DNA of 64,000 nt from Candidatus Woesearchaeota archaeon (GCA_017609645.1 JAFCDQ010000003.1:221571-285570), one strand, 5' to 3'. Shown: positions 34,275 through 37,305, numbered from the stretch's first letter. The notes: generated by a model from the letters alone, not told the origin. Numbers and translations: made by a program.

Positions 34275-35567
34275 ATGGCTAAAACAAAACCACACATTAA
34301 CCTTGTATTCATTGGTCATGTAGACCATGGTAAATCTACAACCGTCGGCAGGTTACTTTTTGATTCAGGCAATATTGACGAGCAAGCTATTAGAAAGTTA
34401 AAGGAAAAAGCTGAAGAGCTTGGTAAAGGCGGATTTGAGTTCGCTTTTGTTATGGATAACTTGAAAGAAGAGAGAGAAAGAGGAGTCACTATTGACTTAG
34501 CTCACAAGAAATTCGAGTCTGACAAGTATGATTTCACAATTATTGACGCACCTGGTCACAGGGACTTTATTAAGAACATGATCACTGGCGCAAGCCAAGC
34601 TGATGCCGCTGTTCTTGTTGTTTCTGGTAATGCTAGTGACGGTGTACAAGCTCAAACTAAAGAGCACGCATTTCTGGCAAAGACTCTTGGTGTTAGTCAA
34701 ATTATCGTAGCTGTTAATAAGATGGATATGGTAAAGTATGATGAAAAGAGATTTGAAGAAGTTAAAAAACAAGTTTCTGATCTATTGAAGATGGTTGGTT
34801 ATAAAATTGAAGAAATCCAATTTCTTCCAATTGCAGCTCTTCCAGGAGATAATCTTGCTAAGAAATCTGAGAATTTTGGATGGTTTAAAGGTCCAACTCT
34901 TTTAGAGGCTATTAACAACTTGAAAGAACCTGAAAAGCCAACTGAGCTTCCTTTAAGACTTCCTATCCAGGATGTTTACAAGATCTCTGGTATTGGAACT
35001 GTTCCTGTAGGAAGAGTCGAAACAGGTGTTATGAAGGTAGGTCAAAAGATTACTGTTGTTCCTGCTAGAGAAGGCAAAGGTGTTACAGGAGAAGTTAAGA
35101 GTATTGAGATGCACCATGAACAATTACAGCAAGCAGAGCCTGGTGATAATATTGGATTTAATGTCAGAGGCATTGAGCAAAAGGATATTGCAAGAGGAGA
35201 TGTTATCGGTAGTGCTGATAATGTTCCAACTATTGCAACTGAGTTCACAGCCAGAATGATTATTTTAAATCATCCAACTGTTGTGACTGTTGGCTACACT
35301 CCTGTGTTCCATATTCACACTGCTCAGATTGCATGTCAAATTACTGAGATTATCAGAAAGATAAATCCTGCTACTGGTGAAACTCTTGAAGAAAAGCCAG
35401 ACTTTGTTAAGAATGGTGATGCTTGCGAAGTAAGGATTAGACCTACATCTGCTTTGGTTATTGAAAAGCAGTCTGAAATTCCTCAACTGGCTAGATTCGC
35501 TGTGCGTGATTCTGGTCAGACAGTCGCTGCCGGTATGTGCATCGATTTAGTAAAGAAAGACATATAA
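34275..35567 (+). CDS. tuf: Archaeal translation elongation factor 1-alpha
   Basis: [46 protein letters not shown]. Confidence 0.98.
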
Positions 35568-35600: not shown

Positions 35601-35912
35601 ATGCAAAAGGCAAGAATTAAGTTAGCTAGTATCGACATTAACAAGTTAAACCAAACTTGTGACTTTATTACTAATATAGCTGAAAAAACAGGTGTTGAGA
35701 TTCGCGGTCCAATTCCTTTGCCTACTAAAAAATTAAAGGTTACAACTAGACGTTCTCCTTGCGGCAATGGTGCCGAGACTTTTGAAAGATTTGAGATGAG
35801 AATTCATAAGAGATTAATAGATTTAGGACTTGATGAAAGAGCATTAAGATTAGTTATGAGAGTACCTATACCTGAGGGTTTGAATATTGAGATTGAGATG
35901 ATCGATGTTTAA
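35601..35912 (+). CDS. rps10: Ribosomal protein S10 (uS10)
   Basis: [42 protein letters not shown]. Confidence 0.97.
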
Positions 35913-35950
35913 GAATTCTAATTATTAATACCAATTCAAACCCGAACGAC

Positions 35951-36096
35951 CAGAAAATTCGTAAGAATTTTCGCTGCCTGAAGGTCTTAATATTGAAATA
36001 GAAATTATTGATGTGTCAAAAACCACCAGTCATAAACTAGTTGCATATCGCGTGGTTTTTGACGCTCAGAATTCCACGAAATGTGGATTTTCGAGC
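35951..36096 (+). other. Hairpin-rich element carrying a recoded second copy of the rps10 3' end
   Basis: GAAAATTC-GTAA-GAATTTTC (35953-35972); [13 protein letters not shown] codons at 35977-36015; perfect 12-bp inverted repeat 36015-36026/36052-36063; related hairpin 36064-36096. Confidence 0.8.
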
Positions 36097-36174
36097 AGAT
36101 GAGTGGAATTATGTTGTTTAATTATATTCTTGAGATTCATTAAATTTAAATACCTCTTATAAAAATGATTTCTT

Positions 36175-37305
36175 ATGGATAATATAGAAGAATCTGAACA
36201 AATAAAACCTAAAAAGAGATATCATTTTGACAAAATTCTATTCATAATTCTTTTAATTCTTGTTGCTTTATTTGTTAGAAAATATATTGCTTCTCAAAGT
36301 ACTGAACTTTTGCCTGATAAAACTGAAGAAATTACTAGTATAATAAATTTAGATGATGTTGCTGAAGATATCAGTATTGAAGACAGGGAAATTAATGTTG
36401 ATGTCATTCATCATAAAGATTGTTTTAAGTGTTTTGCTACTGAACACGTTTTAGATTATTTAATTAAGAAAGGTTTGAATTTAACTATTAAAGAAAATTA
36501 TATTCAGGATTCTGAGGAATATGCAGAACTTGTTGAAAAATTAGGTATTACTAAGCTTCCTGTTGTCGTATTAAGTGGAAACTTAAAAGGTTTGGATAAT
36601 ATTTTAACTGTCTTTGAAAAAAGAGATGAGTATCTTATTTTTGAAGCTGCAGAACCTGCTTTCTATTACATTCCGTCTAAAAAATTCATTGGTTATGTTG
36701 ACTTGATTTATTTGAAAGATAAAGAGTGTAAAGTTTGTTCTAAATTAGGAGCTTTTATTGAAGATATGGATACTAAAATGGGCGTTACTTTTACTGAGAA
36801 AAAAGCAGTTTATCCTGATTCAAAAGAAGGTAAAGAACTTATCAAAAAATATAATATAAAGAAAGTGCCTTCTTTAATATTCACGAGAGAATTACTGGAA
36901 TATTCTTATATTGCTAAAAGCTGGGATAAGATTGGAAGTATTGAAAGTGACGGAGCACTAGTTTTAAGGGAGATTACTCCTCCTTATAAAAATCCTCAGA
37001 CAGGTGAGGTAGAAGGTATTGTTGACGTCACTGTTTTGATTGATTCTTCATGCACTGATTGTTTAGATATTGCAAAAGTAGTAGAACAAGTAAAAACAAA
37101 GTATAAGCTTGTTTTTGGCATTTCAAAAACTGTTGATGTTAAGTCTGAAGAAGGCAAAGAACTTATCAAAAAATACAGTATAGAAAAAGCTCCTACTTTC
37201 ATTTTCTCAGACAATGCTAAACTTTATCCTGGTTTGATGATGGAGTGGGAGAAAAAACTGGGAGTTTTAGCTGAAGACGGTAAATTTGTTTTTACGAAGA
37301 TTTAA
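36175..37305 (+). CDS. Membrane-anchored protein with three thioredoxin-like domains
   Basis: N-terminal TM; CFKC, CKVC and CTDC each followed by ELIxKYxIxKxP. Confidence 0.78.
   Translation: MDNIEESEQIKPKKRYHFDKILFIILLILVALFVRKYIASQSTELLPDKTEEITSIINLDDVAEDISIEDREINVDVIHHKDCFKCFATEHVLDYLIKKGLNLTIKENYIQDSEEYAELVEKLGITKLPVVVLSGNLKGLDNILTVFEKRDEYLIFEAAEPAFYYIPSKKFIGYVDLIYLKDKECKVCSKLGAFIEDMDTKMGVTFTEKKAVYPDSKEGKELIKKYNIKKVPSLIFTRELLEYSYIAKSWDKIGSIESDGALVLREITPPYKNPQTGEVEGIVDVTVLIDSSCTDCLDIAKVVEQVKTKYKLVFGISKTVDVKSEEGKELIKKYSIEKAPTFIFSDNAKLYPGLMMEWEKKLGVLAEDGKFVFTKI

Follow-up and report, generated by a model that had tools for sequence, protein, structure and literature searches.

Positions 35871-35976 of the window, the 64,000-nt stretch of DNA from a Candidatus Woesearchaeota archaeon that was analysed here, probably form (estimated probability about 0.6) a structured, protein-less cassette of ~100 nt that replaces the 3' end of the ribosomal protein gene rps10 and spreads between related lineages by recombination. 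The gene possesses two tails, a translated one that would have arrived with the cassette (tail A) and a displaced one downstream (tail B), with two helices (S1 and S2) between their starts.

The rps10 locus carries two differently spelled tails

The source genome (1.13 Mb, 32% G+C, four contigs), which similar public sequences assign to the Woesearchaeota/Nanoarchaeia (DPANN), encodes EF-1alpha (34275-35567) directly upstream of rps10, and the S10 protein of the window is 72-91% identical to S10 in 37 of 41 related genomes. The repeat finder aligned 35871-35915 with 35977-36021 at 76% identity and a spacing of 106. Compared codon by codon in the window, the two tails differ at 9 of 39 bases; eight of these differences are silent and one changes ATG to ATT. 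The second, silently recoded tail that the original prediction had read at 35977-36015 is therefore real. As it had also stated, this copy lacks a start codon and reads on to a TGA at 36100-36102, and an in-frame stop lies 5 codons upstream of it. The features of the locus are the following:

35601..35912, + strand: rps10 (ribosomal protein S10, 103 aa), the working gene, ending in tail A (ORF list)
35871..35875, + strand: first CCTGA, shared core and putative left edge of the cassette (enrichment of the Pro codon CCT; helix S1 opens at the next base)
35871..35912, + strand: tail A, the translated last 13 codons and stop, probably cassette-borne, foreign spelling (block comparison with genomes G011 and G002)
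35876..35885, + strand: 5' strand of S1, GGGTTTGAAT, tail A codons 2-5 (perfect pairing with 35934-35943)
35913..35933, + strand: AT-rich spacer past the stop, its start resembling the native 3' flank (..TTCTA..) (22-locus alignment)
35934..35943, + strand: arm, the 3' strand of S1, ATTCAAACCC, reverse complement of tail A codons 2-5 (covariation is seen for tail A but not for tail B)
35944..35976, + strand: linker GAACGA and hairpin S2 with its conserved base (fixed flanks CCAG...CGCTG across loci)
35977..36015, + strand: tail B, the displaced, untranslated tail, opening with the second CCTGA, its 3' two-thirds native-like (comparison with G002)
36016..36115, + strand: module B, a separate 100-nt two-hairpin repeat (three further copies in the genome; RNA fold z-score -3.6)
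36116..36121, + strand: GTT TAA, what is left of the native final codon and stop, running on into the native 3' flank (match to the G002 empty site)

Hairpin S2 consists of CCA, a stem strand at 35953-35960, the loop GTAA, the second stem strand at 35965-35972 and then GCTG, which confirms the first of the two predicted hairpins, including its loop. Empty sites, that is, rps10 ends without the cassette, likewise open with TTCT after the stop. According to the ORF list, no open reading frame fits inside the 106-nt unit. No tRNA was detected in 35850-36200, and no Rfam 15 family reached its gathering score there. Neither a third copy of the tail nor a large element was found elsewhere in the source genome. 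A genome-wide scan for duplicated gene tails gave four matches against none in a reversed-peptide control, and rps10 is the only protein-gene end among them: two of the others are antisense frames of TPR repeat genes, hence spurious, and one is the 3' end of a tRNA-Ser.

Tail A is functional and tail B decays

In 22/22 loci tail A is undamaged and conforms to the consensus, and all damage across loci is confined to tail B. The stop of tail B has been lost in the window and at L045 and L036, an early stop has appeared at L039, two codons have been deleted at L042/L044, and missense changes include M>I three times, V>F, I>T and I>N. The same-genus genome G001 has kept only a decayed relic of S2 and tail B, whose local alignment score is 40 against 24.7 +/- 4.3 for shuffled sequences (1 of 500 shuffles scoring as high). 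Since damage strikes tail B only, this tail is dispensable and under relaxed constraint, and we consider it to be an untranslated relic. Most tail B copies can be read as uninterrupted coding sequences with their own stop. Readthrough, frameshifting or independent translation of tail B was considered and rejected on account of the spacing between the tails, which can be 0, 1 or 2 mod 3, the in-frame stop 4-5 codons upstream and the lack of a start; an S10 protein ending in the tail B of the window would carry the peptide ...IEIEIIDVSKTTSHK.

The spelling of the two tails bears on their origin. Over 20 loci, the bases that differ between A and B fall 144 times in synonymous and 10 times in non-synonymous codon pairs, for an expected synonymous share of 18% under random change (binomial P about 1e-92; the 20 loci are not phylogenetically independent, so that this and the other counts across loci overstate significance). 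It had been argued from the window that a neutral duplication would not diverge at silent sites only, and the larger set bears this out: judging from these codon pairs, the silent-only divergence cannot date from the stage at which tail B was a neutral relic. Between species of the same genus, 67-76 of the 312 bases of rps10 differ, nearly all of them silently, which corresponds to 8-10 per 39 nt, and the A-B distance matches this per-site distance between congeneric species.

Comparing both tails with those of related genomes, as had been proposed in order to recognize the ancestral one, was informative in the window. Tail A differs at only 3/39 bases from G011, a genome of another genus, against 6-14 differences in the remaining 39-nt blocks of the gene, and at 10/39 bases from the same-genus G002. 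Tail B differs from G002 at 6/39 bases, and over codons 5-13 at just 2/27. When all loci were taken together, tail B was not significantly closer than tail A to the closest empty relative (11 vs 8, p = 0.65), since most relatives are 12-27% diverged and saturated at silent sites. The within-genus size of the A-B distance and the affinities to G011 and G002 make the tails look drawn from two related lineages, and we propose that they are such lineages' gene ends, each shaped by selection before they were juxtaposed. Within loci, the C-terminal residues (MME, MLE, DV or DS) agree between A and B.

Helices S1 and S2 are conserved through compensatory changes

The original prediction did not contain the 10-bp pairing of tail A (35876-35885) with 35934-35943, in which GGGTTTGAAT pairs perfectly with ATTCAAACCC in the window. 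In general, the 8-10 nt that precede GAA(T)GG are the reverse complement of positions 5-12 of tail A (R GGN YTN A). Across 21 distinct loci, 159/168 cells of this helix hold standard pairs, and both sides change at four variable positions, where the pairs are G-C 13 times and A-T 5 times, A-T 12 and T-A 8 times, C-G 8 and T-A 13 times and, at the fourth, T-A, C-G, G-C or A-T. At the same positions the arm would pair with tail B in only 8-14 of the 21 loci. The complementarity begins immediately 3' of CCTGA, which itself takes no part in it. As for S2, its foot CCAG...CGCTG is fixed; above it, at least 9 distinct perfect stems occur across loci, and the loops are unrelated to one another. The compensatory changes in S1 and S2 indicate that the unit is a structured entity, in which the arm and the silent positions of tail A evolve together and both helices are evidently maintained. 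This evidence is comparative, not thermodynamic, the fold of the window unit having a modest z-score of -2.0 against shuffles. The helices could serve as an RNA structure of the 3'-UTR or as a folded single-strand substrate of recombination.

Other readings of these elements were discarded. The arm is not a diverged direct copy of the upstream Val-Pro codons, as it tracks the Gly-Leu codons of tail A as their complement. Neither a pairing between the arm and tail B nor one between the starts of A and B (11/20, manual count) showed co-variation, and the CUGA/AUGAU motifs suggestive of a hammerhead, a C/D box or a K-turn stem from the coding sequence only.

Four intergenic hairpins of the source genome carry the flanks of S2 (GAGACCAG-stem-CGCTGCCTC), often followed by a T run and without tails, all four being placed 25-45 nt ahead of an opposite-strand start codon. 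A similar motif is present in antisense in the intron of tRNA-His(GUG). These hairpins and the intron motif suggest that S2 may stem from a general hairpin family of the source lineage.

The cassette recurs in DPANN archaea with a patchy distribution

We searched for further loci with a junction pattern combining the hairpin foot and the tail, CGCTGCCNGARGGNYTNAAYATHGARAT. It was found in 10 contigs among one genome per species (185,579 species), all of them DPANN MAGs, and in 15 metagenome contigs, and gave no match in 2.9 million viral contigs. Two further variants, L075 and L083 (GGTCAG..CGTTG and GCCAAC..CGCACTG), were identified among the relatives of one carrier, G421. One match to the pattern, G344/L032, lies outside rps10 and is due to chance.

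The layout is thereby seen in about 27 independent Woesearchaeota/DPANN assemblies: tail A, stop, AT-rich spacer, arm, CCAG...CGCTG hairpin and tail B. This order is constant wherever upstream sequence exists, with tail A ending in (I/L/V/M)(E|DV|DS)* and a spacer of 20-35 nt, past which the consensus reads (a/g)(t/a)CC(C/T)GAA(T)GG-C(C/T)(A/G)G-stem-loop-stem-C(C)GCTG, then the second CCTGARGG tail. The A-to-B spacing ranges from 79 to 174 nt. At L055 the unit occurs in tandem, and at L038 and L050 another 55-75 nt are nested within the hairpin loop. No locus has a large element between the tails, and no enzyme gene is conserved downstream of the cassette across loci, where only host synteny is seen.

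The distribution is patchy. The strict junction is present in 2/401 genomes of the order, which belong to two different families, and the cassette in 4 of about 24 relatives of G421. In these relatives, as far as checked, GAATGGYCAG..CGYTG occurs once per genome, at rps10. On the S10 tree carriers adjoin empty relatives, and between 3 (counting well-supported branches only) and 6 gains or losses are needed. Together with the mostly intact tail B, this patchiness indicates turnover of the cassette, rather than old vertical descent.

Empty sites and a near-isogenic pair suggest transfer as a short patch

In the same-genus genome G002 (L003), rps10 ends in an empty site, ...GATGTGTAA|TTCTAAGATTCATTAATTTTAAAT, followed by the downstream gene that is found at 36175-37305 of the window. 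In the window the native junction, GTTTAA|TTATATTCTTGAGATTCATTAAATTTAAAT, is reached only from 36116 on, and the remnant region reads GTTTAATTATATTCTTGAGATTCATTAA, compared with GTGTAATTCTAAGATTCATTAA at the empty site of G002.

One event could be dated by comparing the filled loci L053/L048 with the empty G006. Over the 1400 nt upstream of the tail, only 17 differences were counted (1.2%). Tail A of L053/L048 differs from the G006 tail at 8-9/36 bases, and the last 1-7 bases ahead of tail A differ too. Their tail B differs from G006 at 4/12 bases in codons 1-4 and at 2/27 in codons 5-13. The filled allele is thus best described as a foreign patch of about 125 nt that ends within homologous sequence, reaching from a few bases ahead of tail A to a point within tail B 12 nt past the second CCTGA; these ends are deduced from a handful of differences, and the dating from a single near-isogenic filled/empty pair. 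The patch looks like a short product of homologous recombination with a cassette-bearing relative. Since the G006 tail is not a chimera of A and B, G006 represents a true empty site and not a deletion product. Past the stop, G006 is rearranged and L048 retains the NUDIX gene typical of the family, which is unrelated to the cassette.

Module B is a separate repeat

The perfect 12-bp inverted repeat (36015-36026/36052-36063) and the second, 'related' hairpin (about 36067-36092) had been taken as flanks of the duplicated tail. Both exist, and both belong to module B instead of the tail-duplicating unit. Module B has four copies in the genome in all, the other three being C1:362661-362779 (76%-alignable) and the weaker C1:514031-514193 and C1:95460-95567. 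In the window it sits between the last Val codon of tail B (GTG, 36013-36015) and the native GTT TAA (36116-36121), which explains why tail B lacks a stop. Once module B is removed, tail B becomes continuous with the native downstream flank, showing that tail B is the resident tail. As cassettes elsewhere come without module B, it is more likely that the cassette came first and that module B landed later, harmlessly, in a dead tail. The opposite order is possible, in which module B came first and the cassette then restored the gene end. The 'repair' of rps10 put forward in the original prediction corresponds to this second order, and is thus just one of two possible sequences of events in the window.

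A model for the cassette and its alternatives

The preferred reading, a tail-replacement cassette carried by recombination, would work as follows. The cassette would comprise tail A after CCTGA, the stop, ~20 nt of 3' flank, the arm, the linker, S2 and GCTG-CCTGA, S2 abutting the second CCTGA and the displaced resident tail, which would decay slowly. It would be transferred as a short recombination patch, with homology provided on the left by the body of rps10 and on the right by tail B, and at each transfer the incoming tail B would recombine with the working tail of the new host. Tail B would thereby be refreshed, gaining the host C-terminal residues and preserving its stop. If tail B is re-made per transfer, it is expected to read as coding, to carry host residues and to differ from tail A almost only silently. 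As a complete tail and stop are supplied, S10 would remain unchanged and the cassette would be tolerable in an essential gene at little cost. We infer both recombination as the general route and the refreshment of tail B. Plain recombination does not explain the upkeep of S1 and S2 or the persistence and spread of the allele. In addition, 20/22 A tails and 23/24 B tails use CCT for the Pro codon, as opposed to 18/37 empty sites (P = 0.0016 and 8e-5), and the following Glu codon is GAG in 14/22 A tails versus 6/37 empty sites, the 8/24 of the B tails not differing significantly from empty sites. The excess of CCT on both sides and the start of S1 right after CCTGA would fit site-specific exchange better than plain homologous recombination.

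This brings in an alternative that we judge unlikely overall, in which the unit would be a site-specific miniature mobile element, excised and inserted at the 5-nt CCTGA core, perhaps by way of a small circle or a folded single strand with S1 and S2 on either side of the core, by a host enzyme acting in trans such as a tyrosine recombinase, with recombination patches being secondary. CCTGA at both edges of nearly all loci, S1 opening at the base that follows it, the invariant foot of S2 under a variable stem and loop, a Glu codon past the core that is cassette-like in A and native-like in B, and the one tyrosine recombinase encoded in the genome, at C4:166854-167348, all favor such an element. 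A circular form would join …CGCTGCCTGA to GGGTTTG… (the GGGTTTGAAT side). However, the foreign stretch of L048/L053 overshoots the second CCTGA at one end and starts 1-7 nt before the first at the other, every genome checked has just one copy of the GAATGG..CGYTG unit, whose ends lack inverted repeats, and the Y1 HUH transposase of IS200/IS605 and PATE/REP elements (TnpA/RAYT, PF01797) is absent from the source genome (90% complete). The original prediction of a small mobile element that carries its own rps10 3' end is accordingly upheld in part: the empty congeneric site, the recurrence, the decay of tail B alone and the foreign patch agree with it, while the 'targeting' by an enzyme would be a further assumption and the datable event resembles a homologous-recombination patch. 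Integration of a larger virus or plasmid, with the tails as attL and attR and the interior since deleted, is very improbable. Elements that integrate at gene 3' ends do bring a replacement end and leave the old one downstream, and the tyrosine recombinase would be at hand, but about 27 lineages have retained one and the same interior of 55-130 nt with its co-varying S1 and S2, and independent deletions would have left differing remnants. The lack of any locus with its element still in place and of viral contigs with the junction also argues against a scar, as do the tails themselves, which share only about 5-8 identical bases and no extended att core.

The compensatory changes, which imply that some structure is under selection, the many tail B copies still intact with a stop, and MFE folds in which the starts of A and B come close in a three-way junction could also be read as an old duplication kept for an RNA function. 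The tails and helices would then be a conserved device in the rps10 3'-UTR, acting on stability, termination or regulation, with vertical descent and frequent loss, and tail B would be conserved as part of the RNA or used after processing (splicing or bypassing). We regard this as quite doubtful, given that nonsense, indel and missense damage strikes tail B alone down to the relic of G001, that the A-to-B spacing keeps no frame and no start codon precedes B, that the A-start/B-start pairing shows no co-variation, that a species-level relative lives without the cassette, and that the fold z-score is only -2.0. A bulge-helix-bulge, the motif of archaeal introns with two 3-nt bulges on opposite strands of a 4-bp helix, was not found when the folds of 22 loci were searched manually for in-register splice pairs, the unpaired stretches flanking the same end of the helices. 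For the alternative C-terminus made by RNA processing or recombination, which had also been predicted, we obtained no support, tail B moreover being dispensable in several lineages. Finally, as the window comes from a metagenome-assembled genome, a co-assembly of two strains, the objection anticipated at the outset, or a chance repeat had to be considered. The chances of such an artefact are negligible in view of the recurrence of the layout in assemblies from different studies, the lineage-specific co-variation and the empty reversed-tail control.

Beyond the recombination-borne cassette, we tentatively raise a further possibility, which seems less probable than that reading. These units may form an undescribed class of protein-less, self-folding 'tail-replacement' elements, in which S1 and S2 would frame a short core and a host enzyme would handle an intermediate, either circular or single-stranded and folded, and actively bring it into the final codons of essential genes, the re-spelled end keeping the insertion harmless.

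Comparison with known systems

Prophage e14 and phage 21 at E. coli icd, as well as islands in tRNA genes, integrate at a gene's 3' end and bring along a substitute for it. The logic of the rps10 cassette appears to match such 3'-end replacement by incoming DNA. In both cases, the gene survives because the incoming DNA brings a similar but re-spelled 3' end, and the resident end stays behind downstream, untranslated. The identical core at both junctions of such elements may have a counterpart in CCTGA, which stands at both edges in nearly all loci but has only 5 nt and belongs to conserved codons. The e14/icd elements, however, are kilobases long with their own integrase, whereas the rps10 unit has about 100 nt, no ORF and an internal helix, S1, in which an antisense arm pairs with the tail copy, and the only event that could be dated looks like arrival in a homologous-recombination patch.

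Paquin, Laforest and Lang reportedly described in 1994 a hybrid atp6 gene of Allomyces in which a mobile endonuclease ORF came with a C-terminal duplication. Such fungal mitochondrial elements share with the cassette a foreign recoded C-terminus, a native pseudo-end downstream and spread between related genomes. Conversion is driven there by a homing endonuclease gene, whereas no nuclease gene lies in or near the rps10 cassette.

MITEs and REP-like repeats are also small, non-coding and hairpin-forming, and the S2-like hairpins at four intergenic sites and the four-copy module B resemble them. MITEs have terminal inverted repeats and many dispersed copies, whereas the rps10 unit ends in CCTGAGGG... 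and ...CGCTG with the S1 and S2 repeats internal, is single-copy at one codon of one gene, and carries coding sequence. IS200/IS605-derived elements have subterminal hairpins and insert 3' of a fixed short target without duplicating it. In the rps10 unit S2 is subterminal and the unit follows CCTGA, which may or may not amount to the same thing, as a second CCTGA comes after the unit and the L048 patch extends past it. A diversity-generating retroelement, which alters only adenines of its template repeat and has a reverse transcriptase nearby, does not account for the differences, which comprise all kinds of third-position change with the peptide kept, and no ORF is adjacent. The L048/L053 patch, with its ends in homologous sequence, is what short-patch gene conversion of an indel allele would produce, but neither the upkeep of two co-varying helices nor recurrence at a single codon in different families would be expected of an ordinary indel. 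We found no description of such cassettes in the literature. A paper on Rep-Arvir (PMC13107129) proved irrelevant, its subject being replication-origin hairpins.

Significance

It is unexpected that genomes of ~1 Mb, thought to be streamlined, should carry a gene-free insert of ~100 bases in the final codons of a ribosomal gene that is both essential and highly conserved, at the same codon from one DPANN family to another and with two helices maintained by compensatory changes. The cassettes account for 'recoded duplicate' gene ends, which could otherwise be mistaken for pseudogenes, frameshifts or assembly errors. Should S1 and S2 act as an RNA device, the mRNA of a ribosomal protein could acquire a 3'-UTR module by transfer of the cassette. 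If the cassettes are active elements, they would represent a new, minimal kind of mobile DNA that targets gene ends, as well as a marker of recombination between uncultured lineages.

Genomic context and variants of the rps10 cassette

The rps10 cassette consists of gene tail A, the stop codon, a spacer, an arm and the hairpin S2, and is followed by the displaced tail B. We compared an empty site (L006, genome G006) with the filled loci L048 and L053; the empty and filled lineages are near-identical, differing by 1.2% upstream. All similarity is lost exactly past the rps10 stop codon, and the genes that follow are the family-typical NUDIX gene, retained in L048, versus different genes in G006. 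The end of rps10 is a synteny breakpoint.

Variants of the cassette were found at other loci. On the metagenome contig Ga0209211_10045143 (L055:1844-2060), the unit is in tandem: a stretch of about 110 nt that spans the tail, the spacer, the arm and the beginning of S2 is present twice at ~98% identity. The second copy continues into another structured region, which is larger (CCGCCAGTCACAGACTGGCGG...) and similar to part of module B, the two-hairpin repeat described below. At L050 and L038 (the latter being the contig of G029), the S2 loop contains an extra 55-75 nt of nested hairpins, indicating that this loop tolerates or attracts secondary insertions.

Hairpin families in the genome

Module B, which lies within the displaced rps10 tail, belongs to a family of four two-hairpin repeats of 100-160 nt, with TCAAAAACCACC..GGTGGTTTTTGA as the first hairpin and AATTCCAC..GTGGAATT as the second. 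No obvious target duplication was observed at these four copies in the genome:

Window 36016-36115, module B copy
C1:362661-362779, module B copy
C1:514031-514193, module B copy
C1:95460-95567, module B copy

A family of intergenic hairpins, in which constant GAGACCAG and CGCTGCCTC enclose a stem-loop-stem, was also found in this genome:

C1:303362, minus strand, fixed-flank hairpin
C1:61395, minus strand, fixed-flank hairpin
C1:55662, minus strand, fixed-flank hairpin
C4:18882, plus strand, fixed-flank hairpin

These hairpins are usually followed by a T run, and each lies upstream of an opposite-strand start codon located 25-45 nt away. An 81-aa frame terminates within the C4 copy (...KEAARK*).

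tRNA genes

ARAGORN, run with introns allowed on all contigs of the genome, reported introns in 28 of 43 tRNA calls, part of which are doubtful (e.g., introns of 367 and 897 nt), and several introns occupy non-canonical positions. The 44-nt intron of tRNA-His GUG (C1:51112-51227, minus strand) includes GGCAGCG-TCAAAC-AAAG-TTTGA-CTGGC, the antisense of the S2 flank motif, which overlaps the 5' splice site. This occurrence may be due to chance (an estimated ~0.08 expected) or may mean that tRNA introns and the hairpin family are connected.

Outside the window, at C1:294882-295045, the last ~30 nt of tRNA-Ser(GCU), corresponding to the T arm and the acceptor 3' strand, recur 75 nt downstream, and the two copies differ in how the acceptor is spelled (CACTGGCGTCA versus CGCCGGCGTA). 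They are separated by a stretch containing the hairpin ACAAAAACC-AAAA-GGTTTTTGT, and the leader and trailer of the tRNA are mutually complementary (AGAAAAATTCACCC / GGGTGAATTTTTCT). This end repeat resembles a tRNA version of the rps10-type gene-tail duplication, in which the last 13 codons recur as a silently re-spelled copy.
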